From a virus (taxonomy: Duplodnaviria > Heunggongvirae > Uroviricota > Caudoviricetes), in the IMG/VR virus record IMGVR_UViG_2671180254_000014: 40,208 bases of DNA; one strand, given 5' to 3'. Position 1 is the stretch's first letter. The number at the start of each line of letters is the position of its first letter. Positions 278-40,208 of this stretch are shown in pieces. A program made the position numbers and the translations under genes. Under the pieces are notes generated by a model. It saw only the letters and a list, made by a program, of their open reading frames with translations. It searched no databases and was not told the DNA's origin.

Positions 278-2368
278 ATGTGGGTAACAGCAAAAGAATG
301 TGTTGGTCTTCCTGATTTACCAATGATGGAACATAACATTCGCCATCGACTCACAAAAGCAGCTGCGGGAAATGCAGCCATGTTACGCAAACGTAAGGGG
401 ACAAAAGCAATCGAATTTAATATCGATTGTTTGCCTTCTGGCGCGCAACAAGTATTGCGTGAACGTTATGCCCTTCAACTGATGACGCAAAAAGCTGATG
501 AATCACCGGCTCCGGTGGTGACAAAGGCCAGACGCTCATCTGCCGTGGTTGATGCGGTGGAGGCATATCGCGGATCACCACAACTGATGCTCGAACGCCT
601 CAATGCCCTGACTGAAAACCAGCGCCAGGTGGCTGATGCACGAATCGCGATCGTCAGCGAAGTTCTGAAAGTCGCGCAACAACCTGGTTTCAGCTGTGCG
701 AAGGCTATCCGGTTTATCGTTGACAACCTGGCACGTTCGCAACTGGACGAGCGCATTGTGGCAATGGTTGAGACGGCGAACGCCAAAAAGGGAAACAGCC
801 GTGCGTTGAGTGAAATCACGCTGAAACGCTGGATTGCGGCCTTTAACAAGGCACAGAACGCCGCTGAACGCCTGCTTTTACTGGCACCGGGTAAACGCCA
901 GGAAATAAAAGCCGAAGATATTAACTGGCTGCCCGAATTTCTGGCGCAGTATCGCCAGTCAAACGGCCGACCAATGACCGAGGCTTACGAGGATTTTGTT
1001 GCTGAATGGCAGCACCGGCACGCTGATGAGCCTTATATGCTCGATATCATGCCCTCTTATGACACCATTCGCCGCGCAATGAAGAAACTGCCGGAAGTGG
1101 TGAAACAAAAAGGCCGGGTAACTGGCAGTGAATACCGTCAGCTTGAGGGATTCACGCGCCGCGACTGGTCCAGAATGCCGGTGAATTATGTCTGGATTGG
1201 TGACGGTCACGGCATGAAGCTGAAATGCGCGCACCCGGTTCACGGGCGGCCATTCGCACCGGAAGTGACCTTTGTTATCGACGGTGGCACGCGCTTTGTG
1301 GTGGGCTGGAGCCTTGACCTGGCTGAAAATGTTTTCGCCGTAGCCGGTGCCATACAGCACGGTATTCGCCATCATGGCAAACCGTTTCTGTATTACTCGG
1401 ATAATGGCTCCGGGGAAACCGCCGACGTCCTGGATAAGGAGATTGTGGGGATACTGCCACGACTGGGGATTAATCACCCGACAGGGATTGCCGGTAATCC
1501 GCAGGGACGGGGCATTATCGAACGGCTTAACCGCACATTACCGATGCGCATAGCCCGTAAATACCGCACCTATTTCGGGAAAGGAGCAGATCGCGAGACG
1601 TTACGTAAAACCAACCGCGATTTACGCTCGGCATTCAGTGCCCTGCAACAGGGCAAACGGCTGAACGCCCGGCAGCAGTCAGCGATGCGTGATTTACCGT
1701 CCTGGTCTGAACTGATTGATGCCATTCGTGACGGTGTTGAGTGGTACAACAACCGGCCGCACGATGAATTACCCATGAAGCCGAACGGTAAACATTACAG
1801 CCCGGCGGAGTTCAGAAAAAAACGCCTGGCGGAAGAGGACACGGAAATTGAATGGCTGTCCGATGTTGAACTGCGGGATATGTTCCGGCCGATGGTGGAG
1901 CGCCCTGTAAGACGCTGTGAAATACGCTGGCTGAATAATATTTACTACGCGCCCGAGCTGCGTGACGAGCATGGCCGTAAGGTACTTATCAGCTATGACA
2001 TTCATGATGCCGAACGAATTACCGTGCGCCGCCCGGATGGCAGCGTGATTTGCGAGGCGGTATGGGACGGCAATAAACGCGAAGCCTTCCCTGTCAGCGC
2101 GGAATACTACAAACAGCAGCAGCGCCTTAAAGGCATGCGTAAACGCGCAGAGGAAAAAATCCGTGATGCCGAGGATGAGGTTGTCAACGTGCTGGAGCAC
2201 AAGCCGCAGGAGCCCTGGCTGGAAAACATATACCGCCCTGTGGGTAATACGGTGACCGTTCAGCAACCGGTCGCTGACGATGAACCTGATGAAGAATACG
2301 AGCGTAATTTCCAGCGGGGATTGCAACTGCTCGAAGCGAAATTAAAAGAAAGTGATCCGCTGGCCTGA
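278..2368 (+). CDS. A: Mu-type DDE transposase (MuA-like)
   Basis: 696-aa ORF, acidic-residue-rich central core region (YVWIGDGHG..., YYSDNGSGE...) typical of MuA-type transposases; position after ner. Confidence 0.9.
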   Translation: MWVTAKECVGLPDLPMMEHNIRHRLTKAAAGNAAMLRKRKGTKAIEFNIDCLPSGAQQVLRERYALQLMTQKADESPAPVVTKARRSSAVVDAVEAYRGSPQLMLERLNALTENQRQVADARIAIVSEVLKVAQQPGFSCAKAIRFIVDNLARSQLDERIVAMVETANAKKGNSRALSEITLKRWIAAFNKAQNAAERLLLLAPGKRQEIKAEDINWLPEFLAQYRQSNGRPMTEAYEDFVAEWQHRHADEPYMLDIMPSYDTIRRAMKKLPEVVKQKGRVTGSEYRQLEGFTRRDWSRMPVNYVWIGDGHGMKLKCAHPVHGRPFAPEVTFVIDGGTRFVVGWSLDLAENVFAVAGAIQHGIRHHGKPFLYYSDNGSGETADVLDKEIVGILPRLGINHPTGIAGNPQGRGIIERLNRTLPMRIARKYRTYFGKGADRETLRKTNRDLRSAFSALQQGKRLNARQQSAMRDLPSWSELIDAIRDGVEWYNNRPHDELPMKPNGKHYSPAEFRKKRLAEEDTEIEWLSDVELRDMFRPMVERPVRRCEIRWLNNIYYAPELRDEHGRKVLISYDIHDAERITVRRPDGSVICEAVWDGNKREAFPVSAEYYKQQQRLKGMRKRAEEKIRDAEDEVVNVLEHKPQEPWLENIYRPVGNTVTVQQPVADDEPDEEYERNFQRGLQLLEAKLKESDPLA

Positions 2369-2441
2369 AATAAAAAAATAACCCGAGGGGTGACTCAGGT
2401 TATTTGAGGTTTCAGTCTCGGAGAATGCTGTCTCAAGCGAG

Positions 2442-3383
2442 GTGAATAATATGACCGATATTAACGATGTAATCAAGACCATTGATGAACTTATTGATGG
2501 CGGCGTACTGACGCAGTATGCCATCGCCAGAGAGGCGGGAATTTCCGACGGCACATTATCGGCTTTCCGTAAGGGAAAATATAAAGGCGATAACGCTGCT
2601 GTGGCTGCTTCCCTGCGCTCCTGGTATGAGAACTGGAATAAACAAAGCGCACTGCCGGAACCGCCGCAGTTTGTGGAAACTCAGACAGTCCAGGAGCTGC
2701 GCGCACTGTTTCAGGCGGTTCGCCTGATGGGCTGTATTAACGTTATTGTGGGCGTACCGGGTGTGGGTAAAACGGCCACTGCCCGTAATTACTGCCAGGA
2801 GCAACCAAACACCTGGATGATCACCCTGTCACCCGCGCACTCCAGCGTCACGGAGTGTCTGCTGGAGCTGGCCGATGCGCTGGGGATTGATTACACCCGC
2901 GCGAACAAAGGGGCATTATCCCGCGCCATCCGCCGTCGCCTGACGGGAACGCGTGGACTGGTGATTGTGGATGAGGCGGATCATCTTGGTATTGACGGTC
3001 TGGAGCAACTCCGGGCAATTCAGGACGCCACGGGGATCGGGATGGTGCTTATTGGTAACCCGCGCGGATTGTTTAAAGGTGGACGCCGCGCCTTTGATGA
3101 TTTATCGCGCCTGTTCAGCCGTCTTGCCCGTACAAAACAACTTCGCAAGGCCAAAAAGGCGGATGTGCTGGCCATTGCCAGGGCATGGGGTATCAGTGGT
3201 GAGGCCGAGCTGGCCGTCATGCAGGCTATCGCTGAAAAGCCGGGAGCATTACGTGTTCTGACACATACGCTTAACCAGGCGTGGCTCACCGCCAGCGGTG
3301 AAGGCGCGGCGCTGACAGAAAAACATATTAATGCGGCCTTTAAAGAGGTTTATACCAACCCTGAATTACTCTCACAGGTGTGA
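2442..3383 (+). CDS. B: Mu B-like transposition ATPase
   Basis: 313-aa ORF with Walker A GVPGVGKT and Walker B-like VIVDEAD; follows transposase. Confidence 0.9.
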   Translation: MNNMTDINDVIKTIDELIDGGVLTQYAIAREAGISDGTLSAFRKGKYKGDNAAVAASLRSWYENWNKQSALPEPPQFVETQTVQELRALFQAVRLMGCINVIVGVPGVGKTATARNYCQEQPNTWMITLSPAHSSVTECLLELADALGIDYTRANKGALSRAIRRRLTGTRGLVIVDEADHLGIDGLEQLRAIQDATGIGMVLIGNPRGLFKGGRRAFDDLSRLFSRLARTKQLRKAKKADVLAIARAWGISGEAELAVMQAIAEKPGALRVLTHTLNQAWLTASGEGAALTEKHINAAFKEVYTNPELLSQV

Positions 3384-3607
3384 TTATGGCGGTATTTAAT
3401 ATTCCTGATATTTACGGACGCTTTTACCTGGTTAATTTCGATAACGTGAAGGTGATTTCACTGGCCGAAAATAAAGCATGTGGCGATTTACTTTTTGAAT
3501 TTAATGACCGCACACGAATGGTGATATCTGCCGGACTTGATCGCGAAGGTGCGACAGAAGTTTACAGCGGAATATGCCGTTCTGTTGGTGCGAAACAAGT
3601 CAGCTAA
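3380..3607 (+). CDS. hypothetical early protein
   Basis: 75-aa ORF overlapping B stop (GTG 3380 or ATG 3386); same strand. Confidence 0.45.
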   Translation: MIMAVFNIPDIYGRFYLVNFDNVKVISLAENKACGDLLFEFNDRTRMVISAGLDREGATEVYSGICRSVGAKQVS

Positions 3608-3874
3608 ATGAGGTGTTATATGAATATGCAATCCTGCGGTAACAAAATGAATTTATTCGACTCCCTGAACAGCGCGCGCCGTCTGACCGAACTTGCCGGT
3701 GCGGTACTGGAACGCAGTAAGCGCTATCCGCAACGTTTTGCACTGAAAACCACGCCGCCGGTAGGCAACGTGCAGGGAACCGGTGAAATTGAAATCACCA
3801 TACAGACCAACGGCCTGCGCCGCCGTGTGAAGGCCACCCGCATCAGCGGCTGCACGGTTTACTGGGAGGTGTGA
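3608..3874 (+). CDS. hypothetical early protein
   Basis: 88-aa ORF, tightly packed; alternative ATG at 3620. Confidence 0.45.
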   Translation: MRCYMNMQSCGNKMNLFDSLNSARRLTELAGAVLERSKRYPQRFALKTTPPVGNVQGTGEIEITIQTNGLRRRVKATRISGCTVYWEV

Positions 3875-3875
3875 G

Positions 3876-4157
3876 GTGAAAAAAAATCTCATTGCATGGG
3901 CGTGGTCGAGTGGTCTTATTGAGTTTGGTTACGTCCTGCCGGAAGGTGCATTGCCGATAGTTGCCGGAAAGCCCGCCACGGTACGGCATGTGATTGATGT
4001 TGTGGCGCGTCATGGACGCGATGAACAGGAACAGCTACTGGTTCCTGGAATACCGGAAGCGGTGACGGAAGAAGAAGCCTTTAATGCCATGGTTCAGTTC
4101 TGCCGTGAGGTCAGACGCCGGGTCAGTTATCCAAACAGAACGAGGGCCAGAGGATGA
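3876..4157 (+). CDS. hypothetical early protein
   Basis: 93-aa ORF starting 2 nt after previous stop. Confidence 0.5.
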   Translation: MKKNLIAWAWSSGLIEFGYVLPEGALPIVAGKPATVRHVIDVVARHGRDEQEQLLVPGIPEAVTEEEAFNAMVQFCREVRRRVSYPNRTRARG

Positions 4158-4426
4158 GTAAAGTCGTGCGCATTATTTTCGAATACAAGGAGGACGTTAT
4201 CCGTAAAAACGCTGATGGAACAGTGCACATGGGGGTAAGTCTGGATATACGTTCAACCGGAATAAAGCAGAAAAATGATAGCCCCGCCATGATTTTTGGG
4301 GTGGTTATGCTGGCAGAAAGCAGAAACTTCGCAGAGCTTGTGGCAATGAAAGCCAGTGCATTCATGAAAGACAGGGGCATGGCTTCCGGGGTTATTAACG
4401 GTAATGAATTTAATCAGCAGGGGTAA
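4154..4426 (+). CDS. hypothetical early protein (paralog 1 of tandem pair)
   Basis: 90-aa ORF with ATGA overlap to previous gene; N-terminus MSKVVRIIFEY. Confidence 0.5.
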   Translation: MSKVVRIIFEYKEDVIRKNADGTVHMGVSLDIRSTGIKQKNDSPAMIFGVVMLAESRNFAELVAMKASAFMKDRGMASGVINGNEFNQQG

Positions 4427-4430
4427 TTCC

Positions 4431-4724
4431 ATGAGCAAAGTACGCGTTATTTTTGAATTTGAGCATGTTTCGCATGACGAAAAACCGGCAGGCAATGACA
4501 GTGTTGAAGTGCATGAAAAGATTGGTGTGGATGTAAAAACAGAACGTGATACGGATAACAGGCCGACGTCACTCTGTGACGTTTATGCAAGTATTCTCCA
4601 GTATCACAGTCCTGAAATTATTCAGTTTCTCTCAGCGGAATTTCAGGCATCTGTACAGGCTTTTGGGGCGGATGCCATCATTAAACGCCACCGCGTGCAT
4701 AAAGCATCAGGCACACTGCAATAA
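4431..4724 (+). CDS. hypothetical early protein (paralog 2 of tandem pair)
   Basis: Internal ATG of ORF 4404..4724; N-terminus MSKVRVIFEFE parallels the preceding gene. Confidence 0.5.
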   Translation: MSKVRVIFEFEHVSHDEKPAGNDSVEVHEKIGVDVKTERDTDNRPTSLCDVYASILQYHSPEIIQFLSAEFQASVQAFGADAIIKRHRVHKASGTLQ

Positions 4725-4735
4725 GGAAAAACAAA

Positions 4736-5266
4736 ATGGCTAAACGCGTTACAAAATTAAAGGCCGCAGCCGAGGCAGCACCGCAGACCCGTGAAGAGGT
4801 CAGCCGCGATATCCGACGCTTTGGGGATATGCAGCGTGAGGCACTACGCCTGGAAACGGCGATGAATGACGAAGTGGCAGAAATCACCGCCCGTTATACG
4901 CCGCAGATTGAAAACCTTAAAAAAGAAATCAAAGTGCTTTTTAAGGGGATTCATGACTGGTGTAAAACCAACCGCAATGAGCTGACGAACGGCGGCGAAA
5001 CCAAAACAGCCAATCTGACCACCGGAACGGTGTCATGGCGGCTGGGAACGCCATCATGCAGCGTCAGCCGTGATGTGGAAGGCGTGATTGAAATGCTGCG
5101 CCGTATGGGCCTTGAGCGCTTCATCCGCACGAAAGAGGAAGTGAATAAGCAAGCTGTCCTGGCGGAGCCAGATGCGGTGAAGGGCATTGCCGGTATAAAG
5201 GTGAATAAAGGCGCTGAAAGTTTTTATGTCGAGCCTTTTGAACAGGACGCCGGACTGAATAAATAA
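4736..5266 (+). CDS. gam: Gam-like host-nuclease inhibitor (DNA-end binding)
   Basis: 176-aa ORF; motifs RLETAMNDEVAEIT, TNGGETKTANLTTGTVSWR, ERFIRTKEEVNK, PFEQ match Mu Gam as I recall it. Confidence 0.85.
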   Translation: MAKRVTKLKAAAEAAPQTREEVSRDIRRFGDMQREALRLETAMNDEVAEITARYTPQIENLKKEIKVLFKGIHDWCKTNRNELTNGGETKTANLTTGTVSWRLGTPSCSVSRDVEGVIEMLRRMGLERFIRTKEEVNKQAVLAEPDAVKGIAGIKVNKGAESFYVEPFEQDAGLNK

Positions 5267-5363
5267 CACCGCATTAAATCTTTAAATATCACATCGTGTT
5301 AATTATGGCGCTCGCGTCAGGGGACTGCCTGCGCCTGTAAACTGAAAATAAGGAACAGGAAAT

Positions 5364-5906
5364 ATGGCATATTTTTATTTCAAATTAGACATAGTGTACA
5401 CAAATAAATATTTAACCGAATATCAGCGGGATGTTTTACCGCTACGCAACAGTATTCTTCGGGCATTACTGAAAAATACAGGCGCTGCCGGATTGCGCTT
5501 AAAGCCGTTCGCCATGGACGTAATCAGTGAGTTTTATTTTTCTGGTTCTCTGCCTGCGGGCTGGCGTAAGCGCGATGATGTGGCTTTTATCGGGGACGGA
5601 CCGTGCTTTATTGCCAGACCTGATGAGTCATGCCCTGAAGGTCCGGCGATTGCCGCAATGATTGAAACCGCTGAACGTGAGTTAAGAAAGCGTCCTGATT
5701 TCCTTGTCTGGCTCTGTGAAAAGCTGGGGGTAATGAGAATCCCCTCCATGTTTAACACGGACTCCTGGTGGACCCCGTCGCTCTCCCGTGATGCCCTGTG
5801 CGTGGTGTTTAAAGTAGGCGCTTATGGCAGGGAAATAAAAGGGGGTATTCCTGAAGAATGCCAGGAAATTAAACATTCTGAATATGTGGCGCTGACGGAG
5901 GAATAA
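5364..5906 (+). CDS. hypothetical early protein
   Basis: 180-aa ORF after a 97-bp intergenic gap; AAGGA-type RBS. Confidence 0.5.
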   Translation: MAYFYFKLDIVYTNKYLTEYQRDVLPLRNSILRALLKNTGAAGLRLKPFAMDVISEFYFSGSLPAGWRKRDDVAFIGDGPCFIARPDESCPEGPAIAAMIETAERELRKRPDFLVWLCEKLGVMRIPSMFNTDSWWTPSLSRDALCVVFKVGAYGREIKGGIPEECQEIKHSEYVALTEE

Positions 5907-5909
5907 TTC

Positions 5910-6443
5910 ATGATTGATGCAAAAGTGCTTGAAGGGGTTAAAAGCTGGCTGCGTTTTTCTGGCCGTCTGACCAGTCGTTCTCTGGCAGAAAAAATGAATA
6001 TGCCGCTATCCTCCATGGTTTATTTTCTGCGTGATGCGGTCGATGCCGGGGTGCTGACGGACCGTAACGGTTTTTATGATATTCCGCGTCCCCGCCCGGT
6101 GCAGGCGGTTCGTCGCAAATGCAGCCAGGAAGGTGCGGCTGATGATGTTCAGTGGTGCAGCTTCAGAAAATCCCTGCCGTGGATTGAGGGGCATGATATT
6201 CCGTCGATGGCGTGGGAATTTGCTCAGGGAGTACTGACCTGCGAAACCGTTTATGTGGTGGCTGAAGTTGATGAGCAGGCCATGAAAGAAGGCGTGCCCC
6301 AGTTTGTGATGGCGTATATCGACATTCGCCTGGGCGTCATTATCTGCGGCTTAAGCGGCTGGAACATCACCGGGCGCGTTCTGCGTTACCTGATTATTGA
6401 CCGGACAGCGGCATCGGCAGGGATATCTGCGGAGGTGGCGTAA
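5910..6443 (+). CDS. hypothetical early protein
   Basis: 177-aa ORF 3 nt after previous stop. Confidence 0.5.
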   Translation: MIDAKVLEGVKSWLRFSGRLTSRSLAEKMNMPLSSMVYFLRDAVDAGVLTDRNGFYDIPRPRPVQAVRRKCSQEGAADDVQWCSFRKSLPWIEGHDIPSMAWEFAQGVLTCETVYVVAEVDEQAMKEGVPQFVMAYIDIRLGVIICGLSGWNITGRVLRYLIIDRTAASAGISAEVA

Positions 6444-6958
6444 TGTTCTTTAAAACATCAAACCCTTCCGCGCTGGCTGCGTGGCAAAAATACCAGCAGG
6501 ACTGCCAGAAAGTTAAGGATGAGGCAAAACGCCTTGAGGCCGTGCTGAATGTTGCGTGCCGGTCGGTATTTGTATCCGGTATCAGTGGATTTTGCTTTAA
6601 GGGACTGCGTTTTACGGAGGACAAATATCCTTTTCATCGCGACTTATGGCGAAAACCGACTGCGTCGAATGGCTGGAGCTGCACACCGCGCACATCACGT
6701 ATCCCTAAAACCCTGCGTGTTGCCTCTGATGAACTGAACAGTCTGTGGCGTGAATATTCGCCCGTCACGTATGCCAGAACCGATGCGCTGTTGTTCTGGC
6801 TGGGTATTGATTTCTCGGCAATCCTGTTTGGCCCTGTGAAGTGGTTCTGCGTTGACGATGTGATTTACCTTCAGTGCGGCGTAAAACCCGCAAAACAGAA
6901 AATGACCGAAATACTGTCTGATGAGTTTTATGCTGCTGAAAAGCGAGTCAGGGGGTGA
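6443..6958 (+). CDS. hypothetical early protein
   Basis: 171-aa ORF, start overlaps previous stop. Confidence 0.5.
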   Translation: MFFKTSNPSALAAWQKYQQDCQKVKDEAKRLEAVLNVACRSVFVSGISGFCFKGLRFTEDKYPFHRDLWRKPTASNGWSCTPRTSRIPKTLRVASDELNSLWREYSPVTYARTDALLFWLGIDFSAILFGPVKWFCVDDVIYLQCGVKPAKQKMTEILSDEFYAAEKRVRG

Positions 6959-6961
6959 TGC

Positions 6962-7513
6962 ATGATGAAATTACAACCCATGGGACTAAAAGGTCGCGCC
7001 CCCGCTCATGTCCGTCCGTGGACACCTGAAGAAGATGCGCTGCTGATTGCGCTTTATTCATCCACCCCGGTTAAGGATATTGCTGCCAGAATAAAAAGAA
7101 CTGTCTGGGCTGTATATAACCGGACTGGTGTATTGCGCAGTTCATACCCGGAGTTACTGAAATATAAACACCCAAGATTTACACCTGATGAAGATAAGTT
7201 TATTCGAAAAAATGCCAGAACAATGACCTGCCAGCAAATGGGAGAATATCTCGGACGTAATAAAGATTCTGTCAGATGTCGGGCAGGAATGATTGGTGCT
7301 GGATTAACAAAGTGCGGAGAGTTACGCCCCGGCACGCGCATATCTGATGATGATGTACGTCTTATACGTGCGCTGCGTGATTCCGATTACCCACGCCGTC
7401 TGTCATTCCGGGAAATTGGCGAAAAGTTTGGAATATCTGAACATTCTGCTCACGCAGTTTATTACCGTCGCCGGACTGCCGAGGACGCTGTATTACGGGA
7501 GTTAACGCCATGA
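6962..7513 (+). CDS. hypothetical protein with Myb/SANT-like W-x-EED repeats
   Basis: 183-aa ORF; WTPEEDALL and FTPDEDKFI repeats plus a basic C-terminal segment; domain call is by eye. Confidence 0.45.
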   Translation: MMKLQPMGLKGRAPAHVRPWTPEEDALLIALYSSTPVKDIAARIKRTVWAVYNRTGVLRSSYPELLKYKHPRFTPDEDKFIRKNARTMTCQQMGEYLGRNKDSVRCRAGMIGAGLTKCGELRPGTRISDDDVRLIRALRDSDYPRRLSFREIGEKFGISEHSAHAVYYRRRTAEDAVLRELTP

Positions 7514-7842
7514 TAACGACCTTATTTGTTGAATCAGATGAACCTCTTGTGTGTGCCGCCGGAATGCCGCTCTGTGGCGGAACGCTGACCGGCGTTTATT
7601 TCGGGGATTTGCGCGGTTATCCCTGGCATTCACTGGATGACGCATTTCCGCCTGATATGGAGGCTGTCGTGCTGATTGTTCAGTATGGTGACCAACAGGA
7701 ACTGCGCATCGGCCATATGGGGTATGAAGGCTTTTTTATTGATGAAGAAACCGGAGCCTGCCTTGAAGATGAGGACGGACAGGTGACGCACTGGTGCCAT
7801 CTTTCGGCCTTGCCGGAATTACAGGGGATACATAATGGATGA
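7510..7842 (+). CDS. hypothetical acidic early protein
   Basis: 110-aa ORF with ATGA overlap to previous gene. Confidence 0.45.
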   Translation: MITTLFVESDEPLVCAAGMPLCGGTLTGVYFGDLRGYPWHSLDDAFPPDMEAVVLIVQYGDQQELRIGHMGYEGFFIDEETGACLEDEDGQVTHWCHLSALPELQGIHNG

Positions 7843-7978
7843 GCAAATTGTTGAATGTCCCACCTGTGGAAATGAGGACCCGGAGTATCTGAAAGAGTGC
7901 CCACATTGTGGTGAGATAAAATGTAACCACTGCGATATGGGCGACGACACTGCATGTATAAATTGTGAGGATGAATAA
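7835..7978 (+). CDS. small Cys-rich zinc-ribbon-like protein (47 aa)
   Basis: Not in the ORF track (under 60 aa); ATG 7835, TAA 7976-7978; four CxxC pairs (CPTC, CPHC, CNHC, CINC); coupled to flanking genes. Confidence 0.4.
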   Translation: MDEQIVECPTCGNEDPEYLKECPHCGEIKCNHCDMGDDTACINCEDE

Positions 7979-7979
7979 T

Positions 7980-8267
7980 ATGGAAAAAGAAATCAAATTT
8001 GCGCCTAAATCTATCGACGAAGAACTGGCTAAAATCGGCATGCTTGAACGTATGCGGGACATTATCGAATATGCGATAAAAGAAAATCTTGCAGCCAGAG
8101 AAGCCCTTTTGATAATGGAGCGGGAGATTAACCTGATTAAGGATGCTGTATCTCTGGATAATAAAATAGCCCGCGAGGAATACGTTCGCCGCAGGCTCGG
8201 TGTTGATGGTTCAGCAATTCTTACATCTGAACATTATGCAAAAATTTTTAATCTTTTTCAGCGGTAA
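7980..8267 (+). CDS. hypothetical early protein
   Basis: ATG 7980 inside ORF 7965..8267, 1 nt after zinc-ribbon stop; GAGGA RBS. Confidence 0.45.
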   Translation: MEKEIKFAPKSIDEELAKIGMLERMRDIIEYAIKENLAAREALLIMEREINLIKDAVSLDNKIAREEYVRRRLGVDGSAILTSEHYAKIFNLFQR

Positions 8268-8487
8268 TCCCCATACAGGCCCGGAGATTGTCGAAATGCC
8301 AGTCGGTATTAATATATGAGCCATCCTGGATATCTTCTGTATTTTCCGGGGTAGAGTTTTTTTGAGCGAGATTGATAATATGTATTGCCTCCTCACGGGA
8401 AATCAGCCCCTTATCGAACAGGGTTACCATAAGATTTCCAGCCATTGTGAATGCGGCAACATCAAGTGCATTTTTTATATCTGACAT
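8248..8487 (-). CDS. hypothetical protein, reverse-oriented within early operon
   Basis: 79-aa minus-strand ORF with AAGGAAAAA RBS about 9 nt upstream of ATG; no plus-strand ORF covers 8268-8557. Confidence 0.4.
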   Translation of the reverse strand: MSDIKNALDVAAFTMAGNLMVTLFDKGLISREEAIHIINLAQKNSTPENTEDIQDGSYINTDWHFDNLRACMGITAEKD

Positions 8488-8515: not shown

Positions 8516-8543
8516 GGCGGTGCGGTAACACCGCCCATTTTTT
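8516..8543 (+). terminator. candidate intrinsic terminator (GC stem plus T6)
   Basis: GGCGGTG-cggtaa-CACCGCC hairpin followed by cattttttat; lies between the reverse ORF and gemA. Confidence 0.4.
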
Positions 8544-8557
8544 ATGGAGCCACGATA

Positions 8558-9043
8558 ATGAATCGCGCTTCCCTGATTACCTTAATACATGTCGCAAAAC
8601 GCGATCTACAGCTTGACCATGATACCTATACATCCGCGCTGCTGGCAGCCACCGGCAAATCCAGTTGCCGTGATATGTCACCCGGTGAGTTATCCCGCGT
8701 GCTGGATGTTTTCAAAAAACGCGGTTTTAAAGTGCGTCANNNNNNNNNNNNNNNNNNNNNNNNNNNNNNNNNNNNNNNNNNNNNNNNNNNNNNNNNNNNN
8801 NNNNNNNNNNNNNNNNNNNNNNNNNNNNNNNNNNNNNNNNNNNNNNNNNNNNNNNNNNNNNNNNNNNNNNNNNNNNNNNNNNNNNNNNNNNNNNNNNNNN
8901 NNNNNNNNNNNNNNNNNNNNNNNNNNNNNNNNNNNNNNNNNNNNNNNNNNNNNNNNNNNNNNNNNNNNNNNNNNNNNNNNNNNNNNNNNNNNNNNNNNNN
9001 NNNCAGCCCTGGATATGTCGGAACGTGCAGTGATGAGTTATGA
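8558..9043 (+). CDS. GemA-like protein (Mu gene 16 family), interrupted by N-run
   Basis: N-terminus MNRASLITLIHVAKRDLQLDHDTY... resembles Mu GemA; N-run 8740-9003 hides the middle, and the 3' end could be 9043 or 9083 depending on frame. Confidence 0.5.
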   Translation: MNRASLITLIHVAKRDLQLDHDTYTSALLAATGKSSCRDMSPGELSRVLDVFKKRGFKVRXXXXXXXXXXXXXXXXXXXXXXXXXXXXXXXXXXXXXXXXXXXXXXXXXXXXXXXXXXXXXXXXXXXXXXXXXXXXXXXXXXXXXXXXXSPGYVGTCSDEL

Positions 9044-9153: not shown

Positions 9154-9576
9154 ATGGCTGAAACACAGATGAGCATGTTTGGTGACAGCGAACAGCTGCA
9201 CGCGCTGATTGACCGTCTGGATGATATTCCTGATGATGAGCTGAAAAAGAACTGGCCCGGCACGCTGCGGGACCTGGTTGATGTGATCAGTGCTGAACTG
9301 CACCGTCAGGGGATTGAACCTGCTCAGGCGGGAATGCTTGCCCGTAAGGTTGCAGCCGCACAGGCCGGGTACATGGGCGGGCGTGGTTATTATCTCCCGG
9401 TCGGTGAATCCCTTTTCACCGAACTGCGCAATAATGAAATTTTTTCCCGCTGGAGCCAGGGCGAAAAAATTGAAACCCTGCGCCGCCACTACCAGATGTC
9501 AGAGACGCAGATTTACTCCGTTATCCGCAACCAGCGTCGCCTGCATCAGGAGCGCACGCAGCCCCGGCTTTTCTGA
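9154..9576 (+). CDS. Mor/C-family transcriptional activator
   Basis: 140-aa ORF; acidic N-terminus, central GGxxYYLPxG-like core and C-terminal helix-turn-helix region as in Mu Mor/C; only one family member seen. Confidence 0.8.
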   Translation: MAETQMSMFGDSEQLHALIDRLDDIPDDELKKNWPGTLRDLVDVISAELHRQGIEPAQAGMLARKVAAAQAGYMGGRGYYLPVGESLFTELRNNEIFSRWSQGEKIETLRRHYQMSETQIYSVIRNQRRLHQERTQPRLF

Positions 9577-9647
9577 TATTCCGCAAATCCTGCCCCCTTT
9601 TCCTCACGGTTACGCTGACTCAGAGAACACCATGAGACAGCGTAACA

Positions 9648-10148
9648 ATGCCAAAACTCCCCGCACCCCTGCGTAAAAAGCTGATTGCCCTTGTTCTGGC
9701 CGGAGCCGGGACGTTCACCATTGCCACGCACTACACCGGCTACTGGGAAGGGAAAGAAAACACCACGTACATTGATCCCACCGGCACCCCCACCATCTGT
9801 TACGGCCATACCGGCCCGGATGTGAAACCGGGGATGACAAAAACTGATGAAGAGTGTCTGGAGCTGCTGGAAAAGGACATGAAATGGGCCTTTGCGGCTA
9901 TCGATCGTCATGTTCAGGTGCCGCTTACCCGTGGTCAGACGGTGGCGCTGGCCTCCTGGATTTTCTGGGCCGGTGAAACGAACTTTCGCAACTCCACGCT
10001 CCTGCGCCTTATCAATGCCGGGCAGATGCCCGCGTCCTGTAAGCAGTATATCCGCTGGATTTATTCAAAGGGGGTAAAACTCCCCGGTCTTGAGGCCCGC
10101 CGTTCGGCGGATGAATGGTTATGTCGTTACGATTTGCCGAAAGTCTGA
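9648..10148 (+). CDS. endolysin, lysozyme family, probable signal-anchor-release type
   Basis: 166-aa ORF; N-terminal Gly/Ala-rich hydrophobic segment LIALVLAGAGTFTIA followed by lysozyme-like core (YWEGKENTTYIDPTGTPTICYGHT). Confidence 0.8.
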   Translation: MPKLPAPLRKKLIALVLAGAGTFTIATHYTGYWEGKENTTYIDPTGTPTICYGHTGPDVKPGMTKTDEECLELLEKDMKWAFAAIDRHVQVPLTRGQTVALASWIFWAGETNFRNSTLLRLINAGQMPASCKQYIRWIYSKGVKLPGLEARRSADEWLCRYDLPKV

Positions 10149-31220: not shown

Positions 31221-32096
31221 TGTTTCATGTTGATAATAATTCCGGCGTGGCGAATATGCCTGCGCTGGCACCGGCGCAGAGTAATACCACCACCTGGTTT
31301 ACCGAAGGTGACGGACAAAAAGGTATCAGCTGGATTGGTCAGGACTGGCTGAATATTCTCCAGGCCGAACTGCTGAATATTCTGGCTGAAGCCAGTATTC
31401 AGCCGGATAAGGCGCAGTTAAACCAGCTTACGCTGTCCATTAAAGCCATTATCGCTGCGAATGCCTTTTCCCGGAAAAATAACCTGAAAGAAATTGCTGA
31501 TGCCGGTGCGGAGGCCCAGCGTCTGGCCCGTGGTTATCTTGGTCTGGGGACGCTTGCCACAAAAAACAGTCTTGGTCCCGCTGACGTTAATGCCCTGGCG
31601 AAGGATCAGAATCTCGCCGACCTGGAGAATAAGGGAACCGCCCGTAATAATCTGGATGTTTACAGNNNNNNNNNNNNNNNNNNNNNNNNNNNNNNNNNNN
31701 NNNNNNNNNNNNNNNNNNNNNNNNNNNNNNNNNNNNNNNNNNNNNNNNNNNNNNNNNNNNNNNNNNNNNNNNNNNNNNNNNNNNNNNNNNNNNNNNNNNN
31801 NNNNNNNNNNNNNNNNNNNNNNNNNNNNNNNNNNNNNNNNNNNNNNNNNNNNNNNNNNNNNNNNNNNNNNNNNNNNNNNNNNNNNNNNNNNNNNNNNNNN
31901 NNNNNNNNNNNNNNNNNNNNNNNNNNNGCCCGGAACATGGGAAAGCTGGGATCTGAATCTGGGGGGCGGCAATGTTCTTACCGGAATTAAAGTACAGGAT
32001 GTCGGTAAGAATACGGCAGATAACGTCGGCGGCGTGTATTACCGGCCGTTGCAGTATCTGTTAAATGGAGCATGGGTGACGGCTGCAAGTATATAA
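31220..32096 (+). CDS. tail fibre protein (constant N-terminal part plus currently joined variable C-terminus), interrupted by N-run
   Basis: N-terminal 148 aa to 31665, N-run 31666-31927, C-terminal 56 aa to TAA 32094-32096 in a different frame, so the gap length is not true. Confidence 0.65.
31531..31665 (+). repeat. left inverted repeat of invertible tail-fibre segment (at least 135 bp)
   Basis: Identical to the reverse complement of 33146-33280; ends at an N-run so true extent unknown. Confidence 0.85.
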
Positions 32097-33280: not shown

Positions 33281-33331
33281 NNNNNNNNNNNNNNNNNNNN
33301 NNNNNNNNNNNNNNNNNNNNNNNNNNNNNNN

Positions 33332-38644: not shown

Positions 38645-40208
38645 GTGCGCATGTGGGATGTCATTGATTTATCGCGCTGGCAGTTTGCTCTGACCGCGCT
38701 GTATCACTTTTTATTTGTACCCCTTACCCTGGGGCTGATTTTTTTGCTGGCTATCATGGAAACCATTTACGTGGTCACCGGCAAAACAATCTACCGCGAT
38801 ATGACGCGCTTCTGGGGTAAGCTCTTCGGTATCAACTTTGCTCTTGGCGTGGCTACCGGCCTGACCATGGAGTTTCAGTTTGGTACTAACTGGTCATTCT
38901 ATTCCAACTATGTGGGCGATATTTTTGGCGCACCGCTGGCGATGGAAGCATTAATGGCCTTCTTCCTCGAATCCACCTTTGTCGGGCTTTTCTTCTTCGG
39001 CTGGCAGCGGCTGAATAAATACCAGCACCTGCTGGTGACGTGGCTGGTGGCGTTCGGTTCAAATCTCTCTGCATTGTGGATATTGAATGCCAACGGTTGG
39101 ATGCAATACCCGACCGGTGCGCATTTTGATATCGACACCCTACGTATGGAGATGNNNNNNNNNNNNNNNNNNNNNNNNNNNNNNNNNNNNNNNNNNNNNN
39201 NNNNNNNNNNNNNNNNNNNNNNNNNNNNNNNNNNNNNNNNNNNNNNNNNNNNNNNNNNNNNNNNNNNNNNNNNNNNNNNNNNNNNNNNNNNNNNNNNNNN
39301 NNNNNNNNNNNNNNNNNNNNNNNNNNNNNNNNNNNNNNNNNNNNNNNNNNNNNNNNNNNNNNNNNNNNNNNNNNNNNNNNNNNNNNNNNNNNNNNNNNNN
39401 NNNNNNNNNNNNNNNNNNNNTGGCGGCGATGGAAGGGGAGTGGCAAACGGAACCTGCTCCTGCACCGTTCCATGTGGTTGCCTGGCCGGAACAGGATCAA
39501 GAGCGTAACGCCTTTGCCATCAAAATTCCCGCGCTGTTAGGGATCCTCGCCACTCACTCATTAGATAAAACCGTGCCGGGTCTGAAAAATTTGATGGCTG
39601 AAACCTACCCACGCTTGCAACGCGGACGTATGGCCTGGCTGTTAATGCAGGAAATATCGCAAGGCAATCGTGAGCCGCATGTGTTGCAGGCATTCCGGGA
39701 ACTGGAAGGTGACCTGGGCTACGGCATGTTGCTCTCCCGCTATGCGCCGGATATGAATCATGTCACAGCCGCACAGTACCAGGCGGCGATGCGTGGCGCG
39801 ATACCTCAGGTTGCGCCGGTATTCTGGAGTTTCCGCATCATGGTGGGCTGTGGTTCCCTGCCGCTACTGGTGATGCTGATTGCGCTTGTCCAGACGCTGC
39901 GTGGCAAAATCGACCAGCATCGCTGGGTGCTGAAAATGGCGCTCTGGAGTTTGCCGTTGCCGTGGATTGCGATTGAAGCCGGGTGGTTTATGACCGAGTT
40001 TGGTCGTCAGCCGTGGGCGATACAGGACATCTTACCGACATACTCCGCGCACTCCGCTTTAACCACAGGACAACTGGCTTTCTCACTGATCATGATCGTA
40101 GGGCTTTACACCCTGTTCTTAATCGCCGAAGTCTACCTGATGCAGAAATATGCCCGTCTGGGGCCGAGCGCGATGCAGAGTGAACAACCGACGCAGCAAC
40201 AGGGGTAA
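38645..40208 (+). CDS. appC: cytochrome bd-II ubiquinol oxidase subunit I (AppC/CbdA), interrupted by N-run
   Basis: N-terminus [28 protein letters not shown]...[22 protein letters not shown] is cytochrome bd subunit I, AppC paralog rather than CydA; N-run 39155-39420; stop at 40206-40208. Confidence 0.85.

Follow-up and report, generated by a model that had tools for sequence, protein, structure and literature searches.

What occupies the dense stretch of small genes between B and gemA in the Mu-like virus record IMGVR_UViG_2671180254_000014 (Caudoviricetes; all 40,208 nucleotides [nt] of which are here called the window), and what is the noncoding gap that interrupts it? A preliminary description, made from the letters alone, had proposed a block of tightly coupled early open reading frames (ORFs) around Gam at positions 3380 to 8267, with a 97-nt gap at 5267 to 5363. 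We observe that 13 plus-strand ORFs indeed fill this block, as judged from the ORF list, the junctions, and the ribosome-binding sites, and that the gap lies exactly where it had been placed and is the only real one in the block. The explanation that we favor, with a probability of roughly 80%, is that the block is the accessory early operon part of a Mu-like prophage, built as a mosaic and carrying a conserved hairpin at a slot where genes are swapped.

The surroundings and the distribution of the block both point in this direction. Pfam matches to MuA and MuB are found at 278 to 3383, others to Ner, Gam, and Mor lie around or within the block, and the order runs from A and B through the block to gemA and mor on one strand. 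The block occurs at 90 to 97% identity in 232 of 5,426 complete E. coli genomes, including O157:H7 strains, and also in the Stx phages LC727881 and LC727895, which carry an "inserted Mu-like phage." With respect to position, strand, and tight coupling, it resembles the semi-essential (SE) region of phages Mu, D108, and SfMu (kil, gp6 to gp9, gam, and gp11 to gp15, from B to gemA), and a 98-nt gap with the same hairpin follows gam in Mu, compared with 97 nt in the window. In the E. coli Mu-like prophages (O157:H7; LC727881/LC727895), the gene order is the same and nucleotide identity is 90 to 97% over most of the block, with differences at two places, the module between o11 and gemA and the slot after the hairpin, where o7, a DUF5420 variant, or a mini-ORF of 14 codons is found. 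Judged by sequence, the block is the ordinary accessory ("semi-essential") early region of a Mu-like prophage that is common in E. coli; as such it is routine, since every Mu-like phage has this poorly understood region and hundreds of sequenced E. coli genomes contain the present version. Its features are listed here, with ORF starts chosen by the best Shine-Dalgarno (SD) support and by comparison with RefSeq relatives:

3386-3607, plus strand: o1, 73 amino acids (aa); phrog_3375, E 4.5e-46; SD sequence, 2 nt after B; coding sequence annotated in E. coli relatives
3620-3874, plus strand: o2, Kil family, 84 aa; phrog_2679, E 7.8e-46
3876-4157, plus strand: o3, 93 aa; stand-alone copy of a D3112-like Gam C-terminal extension
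4154-4426, plus strand: o4, 90 aa; phrog_4107, E 4.5e-56; overlaps o3 by 4 nt; ratio of nonsynonymous to synonymous substitution rates (dN/dS) about 0.3
4431-4724, plus strand: o5, 97 aa; phrog_2230, E 3.7e-40
4736-5266, plus strand: gam; PF07352, E 6.9e-40; full-length identity to Mu Gam, 55%; dN/dS 0.05 to 0.12
5267-5363, no strand: intergenic gap, 97 nt; in order, an AT-rich 5' portion, the hairpin element, and the o7 SD sequence
5299-5335, plus strand: hairpin element, 37 nt, inside the gap after gam
5364-5906, plus strand: o7, 180 aa; phrog_2260, E 4e-72; polymorphic slot 3' of the hairpin
5910-6443, plus strand: o8, Mu gp11 homolog, 63% identity over the full length; PF25754 (Gp11_C), E 2.7e-39
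6443-6958, plus strand: o9, Mu gp12 (E13) homolog, 54% identity over 169 aa; phrog_2314
6962-7513, plus strand: o10, 183 aa, basic (isoelectric point [pI] 10); phrog_323, E 2e-52
7510-7842, plus strand: o11, 110 aa, very acidic (pI 4.05); phrog_6925
7835-7978, plus strand: o12, zinc ribbon, 47 aa, 8 cysteines; phrog_5584
7980-8267, plus strand: o13, Mu gp14 (E15) homolog, 95 aa, 49% identity over 94 aa; phrog_6075
8248-8487, minus strand: o14, 79 aa; phrog_32893, E 8e-45; converges on o13 with a 20-nt overlap
8516-8535, plus strand: terminator-like hairpin and T-run, GGCGGTGCGGTAACACCGCC then CATTTTTTAT (consensus scan), just before gemA

All 13 ORFs match PHROG families (E 1e-26 to 1e-98), and dN/dS against E. 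coli relatives ranges from 0.05 to 0.57 for those with enough substitutions. Because every ORF belongs to such a family and the ratios stay below 0.6, the 13 ORFs are real genes. An SD sequence of the GAGG/GGAG type precedes all 13 starts, and the junctions from B to o13 measure +2, +12, +1, -4, +4, +11, [97], +3, -1, +3, -4, -8, and +1 nt. Some starts had been drawn differently before: those of o1 (a GTG at 3380), o2, o5, and o13 were probably placed 6 to 27 nt too far upstream, and for o2 the candidates are 3608, 3620, and 3647. A consensus scan found neither promoter-like nor terminator-like sites on the plus strand within 3380 to 8267, and the earliest plus-strand terminator-like hairpin 3' of the block is that at 8516 to 8535. 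Because of this spacing and the absence of internal signals, the 13 genes most likely lie on one early transcript, as translationally coupled cistrons.

Half of the 12 non-Gam ORFs (o2, o8, o9, o10, o12, and o13) have counterparts in phage Mu, while o1, o3, o4, o5, o7, o11, and the minus-strand o14 have none. The gene content combines three components: genes held in common with the Mu SE region (counterparts of Kil, Gam, the DNA-binding gp9/E8, gp11, gp12, the zinc ribbon gp13, and gp14); o3, a small adaptor-like domain in common with other transposable phages; and genes without a Mu counterpart, namely, o1, o4, o5, o7, and o11, which are also the five ORFs left without any functional clue. 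Conversely, Mu gp6, gp7, gp8, and gp15 have no counterpart in the window, and the gp9-like gene, which precedes gam in Mu, is longer in the window and follows the gp12 counterpart. A minus-strand gene before gemA is found in the window, in SfMu, and in the Yersinia phage Tongde. At the DNA level, similarity to Mu, D108, SfMu, and the Yersinia Mu-like phages amounts to 65 to 70% and does not extend beyond gam and the counterparts of gp11 to gp14 on the right of the block.

The preliminary description had recognized nothing but Gam, an identification borne out by the PF07352 match and the identity to Mu Gam. As far as function goes its verdict on the other ORFs stands; with respect to identity it does not, since o2, o3, o8 to o10, o12, and o13 can all be placed. 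Nor do the ORFs all turn out to be Mu early genes of known function, the Mu counterparts being themselves uncharacterized: the Mu record annotates none of them apart from kil with a known function, the functions of Mu SE genes have been called "largely unknown" (PMC3820752), and our literature search, which did not reach older papers without open access, found none for Mu gp9 or gp11 to gp14. About half of the "unknown" ORFs are nevertheless tied to Mu genes, so that functions found in the future for Mu gp9 and gp11 to gp14 should transfer directly.

The transposition module and the accessory genes have, by their sequences, separate histories, because the window transposase (278 to 2368) is only 23% identical to MuA, compared with 48% for B and 55% for Gam, and because the early genes of locus L086 differ: its transposase N terminus is similar to that of the window, and its early genes are quite different. 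Compared with one relative, identity per gene varies from 79% to 100%.

The gap after gam had been suggested as the place of an internal regulatory site, and this suggestion gains support insofar as the gap holds a conserved, covarying hairpin. Its core (5299 to 5335) reads UUAAUUAU-GGCGC-UC-GCGUC-AGGG-GAC-U-GC-CU-GCGCC. All Muvirus records match window positions 5234 to 5345 at 75 to 77% identity, and the hairpin is kept after gam in all Muvirus relatives (Mu, D108, SfMu, and the Yersinia Mu-like phages). Two pattern scans of IMG/VR yielded about 90 loci with the hairpin, from which 22 distinct variants were aligned. When these are scored for a 7-bp outer stem and a 3-bp inner stem, 95% of the cells hold standard pairs, whereas pairing drops to 26 to 57% once the 3' partner is slid by 1 to 3 columns. 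Compensatory changes are seen at two pairs (CG<->UA, 15:7; GC<->AU, 8:4), and two inner pairs vary in a wobble-compatible manner only (GC<->GU in 7 sequences, UA<->UG in 1). One architecture serves for all types, with minimum free energies of -12.5 to -16.5 kcal/mol, and a covariance model finds one match in the window at 58.8 bits (runner-up, 12.9 bits). The wobble pattern favors an RNA of the plus strand, and because of these substitutions we read the element as a probable RNA hairpin in the early mRNA, where it may act in cis and, separately from gam, determine how strongly the accessory genes downstream are expressed or how stable their mRNA is. Rfam gave no match in 5267 to 5363 at E<=1, and we found no description of the hairpin in the literature, within the same reach as above.

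Three conventional identities for the gap were tried and dropped. As an intrinsic terminator, the hairpin has the 3' flank UGUAAACUGAAAA, which lacks a T-run, and it was not called by the scan. As a sigma-70 promoter, the gap offers no plus-strand site (at least 9 of 12 hexamer matches, spacing of 16 to 18 nt); the best candidate hexamers found by eye reach only about 7 to 8 of 12 and are not conserved. A conserved small ORF starting at the invariant ATG of UUAAUUAUGGCG fails because a 1-nt length difference shifts the frames between lineages, the peptide from the ATG in the hairpin being MALASGDCLRL* in the window and MARYVRRLLAPETDY* in Mu.

The hairpin extends well beyond close kin. In distant Mu-like contigs, whose B is 31 to 35% identical and whose flanking genes differ, it is about 79% identical and follows a 63-aa ORF rather than gam; copies are also present in the genomes of Erwinia dacicola and Cedecea neteri, and a loose-pattern scan of genome contigs gave 17 chance matches and 2 real ones. 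Two or three copies per locus are found only in the distant relatives L095, L087, and L102. In L095 the hairpin occurs twice, around a 134-aa gene (209 to 710), and in L087 (1980 to 2935, minus strand) three times at a spacing of 459 nt, each copy ahead of one gene; two of the three L087 copies have the same stem and a different loop, CCGCCGGGGCUG. It is on this distribution that the least probable of the alternatives falters, namely, that the hairpin has no function and is conserved only through the close kinship and frequent recombination of these phages. Most of the roughly 90 loci are indeed Mu-like prophages of E. coli, Shigella, or Yersinia, and gap identity to Mu (75 to 77%) is modestly above that of neighboring coding DNA (about 69%), but the identity kept next to such diverged B genes and unrelated neighbors, the copies in Erwinia and Cedecea, the compensatory nature of the stem changes, and the extra copies in L087 and L095 all argue for a function.

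A CsrA-type (GGA-in-loop) or ribosome-standby site controlling translation of the next gene is only slightly less improbable. Mu has CAGGAG at the apex, most others CAGGGGA; 21 of the 22 variants retain GGA, and two further GGA motifs lie at the o7 SD region of the window, 25 to 30 nt downstream. The apex may resemble the CsrB repeats, CAGGA(U/A/C)G, and the SELEX consensus, RUACARGGAUGU; CsrA sites present GGA at the apex of a short hairpin, usually with a second site at the SD sequence. In the predicted fold, however, GGA is partly paired, its G and A lying in the inner stem rather than exposed, and several of the cargo genes have no GGA at their SD sequence.

We find it somewhat easier to imagine, although still unlikely, that the hairpin acts as DNA, i.e., as a protein-binding inverted repeat, a recombination junction, or a site where a dedicated mechanism inserts cassettes, without any role in the mRNA. 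Similarity between lineages stops about 5 to 10 nt 3' of the hairpin, the copies in L095 and L087 flank individual genes, in the manner of attC-like or boundary sequences, and the loop, CGUCAGGGGAYUG, is more conserved than the stem, as would be expected of a recognized sequence. This conservation is partly forced by the search pattern, however, and the one-sided changes in the inner stem keep G-U wobbles on the plus strand (GC<->GU, 7; UA<->UG, 1) that would be C-A mismatches on the other strand. In addition, MuA is the only recombinase encoded nearby, and the right-hand border of the cassette has no second copy of the hairpin in the window.

An RNA hairpin that also borders a swappable gene fits what is found on its 3' side. 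Similarity between lineages ends 5 to 10 nt past GCGCCUG, the 3' end of the hairpin, and because close relatives differ from one another right after it, the next gene is best regarded as a swappable cassette; the hairpin sequence itself may supply the homology for cassette exchange between co-infecting Mu-like phages. Of about 40 loci of the window type, about 17 have o7 in the slot, about 11 have the DUF5420 variant instead, and about 12 have neither; among near-identical prophages, o7 is found to be present, missing, or replaced by another variant. Taking about 100 loci together, 42 have a member of the o7/DUF5420 superfamily directly 3' of the hairpin, 32 have gp11, and 12 have the mini-ORF. 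The cargo at this position comprises at least 10 families; besides the three just named there are at least 7 others, among them a DUF7448 protein and a zinc ribbon of 58 aa whose Lar-like match is weak (E 0.002). In Mu, gp11 comes directly after the gap, and SfMu and some Yersinia phages carry a third DUF5420 variant there. The mini-ORF, of 14 codons (MKYVYIVINNVVGK), lies between the hairpin and gp11 where o7 is absent (e.g., L007, an E. coli HH35 prophage, 3484 to 3528); it is identical in sequence in 12 loci and may be what is left of a lost cassette, or else a leader peptide.

A second variable module begins after o11, where the window, H3, HH35, and NCCP13963 have o12-o13-o14 and an O157:H7 prophage has four unrelated ORFs. 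An SE region is by definition dispensable for plaque formation while contributing to growth, and the natural loss or replacement of o7 and of o12 to o14 in relatives is consistent with the dispensability of these genes only. As for the nature of o7, it is 41% identical to SfMu gp11, annotated as "DUF5420." It does not match PF17457 at E<0.1 and matches phrog_2260 at E 4e-72, and the alternative slot variant matches both PF17457 (E 1.3e-13) and phrog_2260. By these profile matches, o7 is probably a divergent member of the DUF5420/phrog_2260 superfamily. Its AlphaFold2 model (predicted local distance difference test score, 88) has no solved relative and resembles only unnamed phage proteins in BFVD.

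This arrangement recalls the promoter-early stem-loops (PeSLs) of T4-type phages, conserved intergenic motifs that contain a stem-loop and flank exchangeable accessory genes (PMC2839356, PMC4122927), as the window hairpin likewise borders indel and replacement differences between close relatives. In both cases a copy stands ahead of each of several consecutive small genes in some genomes, whereas the window lineage has one copy per genome; the position at a cassette border is thus common to both, and the repetition within one genome is not seen in the window. The window hairpin also differs in having neither a promoter consensus nor a terminator U-tract, and the phage families are unrelated. 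A bolder proposal, which we put forward tentatively and do not hold to be probable, is that the hairpin is an undescribed covarying cis-RNA element of enterobacterial transposable phages that marks, and perhaps drives, the exchange of single-gene cassettes and at the same time sets the expression of their host-interaction or anti-defense cargo, in which o7/DUF5420 is the most frequent family. In that case a cassette system comparable to the T4 PeSLs would exist in Mu-like phages, and its sequence would be a simple handle on accessory and anti-defense cargo. The hairpin is in any case an exact landmark of a hot spot of single-gene swaps and the first place to look for host-takeover or anti-defense functions.

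Among the genes without a Mu counterpart, o3 can be connected to Gam. PHROGs and NCBI name o3-like proteins "host nuclease inhibitor," yet in o3 the Gam domain PF07352 is not found, nor is a Pfam match of any kind. The tblastn matches of o3 fall inside annotated gam in 65 Pseudomonas Mu-like phage records. In the 266-aa Gam of D3112, PF07352 covers residues 19 to 156; residues 1 to 161, the Gam domain, are 52% identical to the window Gam, and residues 176 to 248 align with o3 residues 4 to 77 (43% identity, E 1e-18). Because o3 aligns only to this non-Gam C-terminal extension, its database name is, by this alignment, a carry-over from the Gam fusion. The two domains are fused in the Pseudomonas casadabanviruses (D3112, DMS3, and the JBD phages), whereas the window has them as two genes, separated by o4 and o5.

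The o3 domain is widespread, with 531 cluster representatives at E<=1e-3, most of them 85 to 105 aa long and all with an invariant LLVPG(V/I)PEA motif; some family members have extra regions, and 42 of these longer proteins were scanned without a Pfam match. Genes of the family lie within 5 kb of MuB or gemA in 48 of 54 diverse viral loci, and in 18 of the 54 a detectable gam is found on the same strand within 1 kb. A word-index search for homologs had matched only close E. coli relatives (7 for o3 and 14 for o7). MbtH-like proteins are small partners of the adenylation domains of nonribosomal peptide synthetases; the o3 model resembles them in fold only (9 to 12% identity, borderline Z), with an extra long C-terminal helix and without a nonribosomal peptide synthetase context. 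Gam of the Mu type is a Ku-like protein that binds DNA ends and protects them against RecBCD, and we infer that o3 would work on or beside it. Since Gam, a RecBCD antagonist, is now known to license Gabija (PMC12407980), this fusion makes for a timely and testable hypothesis, namely, that the widespread o3 domain works with Gam at DNA ends.

The location among host-takeover and anti-defense genes that the preliminary description proposed remains plausible as far as the mosaic with its polymorphic slots is concerned, and the wider claim would be that the block, or its variable slots (o7; o11 to o14), is an anti-defense island in which at least one ORF has such a role and turnover reflects arms-race selection, the small proteins neutralizing host restriction or abortive-infection systems early in infection. 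We regard this as possible, at distinctly less than even odds. Prophages that are otherwise 92 to 97% identical show presence, absence, and replacement polymorphism, the operon is the first to be expressed, o11 is small and very acidic (pI 4.05) like DNA mimics, the 58-aa zinc ribbon that follows the hairpin in a distant relative weakly matches the Lar restriction-alleviation family (E 0.002, below the Pfam cutoff), and Gam itself antagonizes RecBCD (PMC12407980). None of the ORFs, however, matches a named anti-defense family in Pfam, PHROGs, or NCBIfam, which are general libraries without a dedicated anti-defense set and thus a weak test both ways; PADLOC defense models gave no family for ten ORFs (o1 to o5 and o7 to o11), and the structure models of o7 and o3 are unlike any solved inhibitor. 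Half of the ORFs, moreover, are Mu genes that are stable and conserved widely, with purifying selection acting on them, and are not cargo with a fast turnover.

Several points weigh against an accessory early operon with a functional hairpin at a swappable slot, our preferred reading. ORF functions are assigned by homology only (Gam and Kil). In the window the hairpin is no more stable than shuffled sequences (z = -1.1; whole gap, z = -0.26), its compensatory changes may represent just one or two evolutionary events, and, since the scan patterns specified the 5' flank and the loop in advance, conservation there is partly built in. With neither a U-tract nor a promoter consensus at the hairpin, no standard mechanism is indicated, and since the window has a single copy, the picture of a repeat at cassette boundaries comes from relatives. 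The link between o3 and Gam derives from one fusion lineage and from the proximity of genes in compact operons; Gam occurs without o3 in Mu and L087, and in the podophage BcepMigl the annotated neighbors of o3 do not include gam.

The remaining ORFs add detail to the mosaic. Scans against Pfam, NCBIfam, and PADLOC gave only Gam, Gp11_C, and subthreshold Myb/helix-turn-helix and zinc-ribbon matches, and neither the single ORFs nor the family profiles of o3 and o7 turned up a relative when searched by sequence against the PDB. For o2, phrog_2679 is labeled "Kil protein for bacterial septation inhibition"; o2 is 33% identical to the C terminus of Mu Kil, has the C-terminal motif GC(T/Q)(V/I)(Y/I)W in common with it, and forms one family with it in an iterative hidden Markov model (HMM) search of all ORFs of about 100 related loci, with 27 of 27 matches in common. 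In Mu, Kil blocks host division. Residues 66 to 169 of o10 merge with the Mu gp9/E8 family in the same search, and Mu E8 finds o10 variants at first-pass phmmer E values of 2e-5 to 6e-4 (3,821-sequence database), but pairwise BLAST of the window o10 against Mu E8 was not significant, so that the link holds at the profile level only. Subthreshold Myb/SANT-like and helix-turn-helix Pfam matches are seen in o10, whose family, phrog_323, is labeled "transcriptional regulator."

For o11 (19 D/E versus 2 K/R), the DUF551 match reaches only E 0.06. The protein o12 is 88% identical to the C-terminal 41 residues of Mu gp13 (E14), residues 20 to 60. RefSeq relatives annotate every ORF of the block but o12; in two of them (L002 and L007) there is no coding sequence at this place and a gap stands between the o11 and o13 homologs, so that o12 is probably a small gene missed in RefSeq annotation. 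The N termini of o4 and o5 both read MSKV(V)R(I/V)IFE(Y/F), and small proteins with a similar N-terminal strand occupy the o4/o5 position in L086 and L087. The two may be distant paralogs from an old tandem-duplicated family; as clear paralogs they were rejected, BLAST of o4 against o5 giving only E 0.25. A likeness of o1 to the Mor C terminus (E 4e-4 in a 20-protein database) was taken as chance. The minus-strand o14, absent from the preliminary description, is annotated in relatives, and, as it runs antisense to the early operon, the repressed prophage could express it.

To the left, the block is preceded by a Ner-like gene (1 to 267), the Mu-type transposase (278 to 2368), and MuB (2442 to 3383), and to the right it is followed by a gemA-like ORF from 8558, a Mor-family activator (9154 to 9576), and then a lysozyme. 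Masked runs of N lie at 8740 to 9003, 31666 to 31927, 33281 to 33331, and 39155 to 39420, the first of which breaks the gemA-like ORF, so that gemA is not readable through in the window. The strong terminator-like hairpin at 8516 to 8535 separates the block from gemA, which suggests that gemA and mor need a promoter of their own; in the Mu record, a "semi-early promoter" is annotated ahead of gemA. The only activator of the Mor family is 40% identical to Mu C and 28% to Mu Mor. Because the lysozyme follows it directly (9154 to 10148), without a counterpart of the Mu middle operon (gp18 to gp20 and C), the gene content points to a transcription cascade of two steps rather than three.

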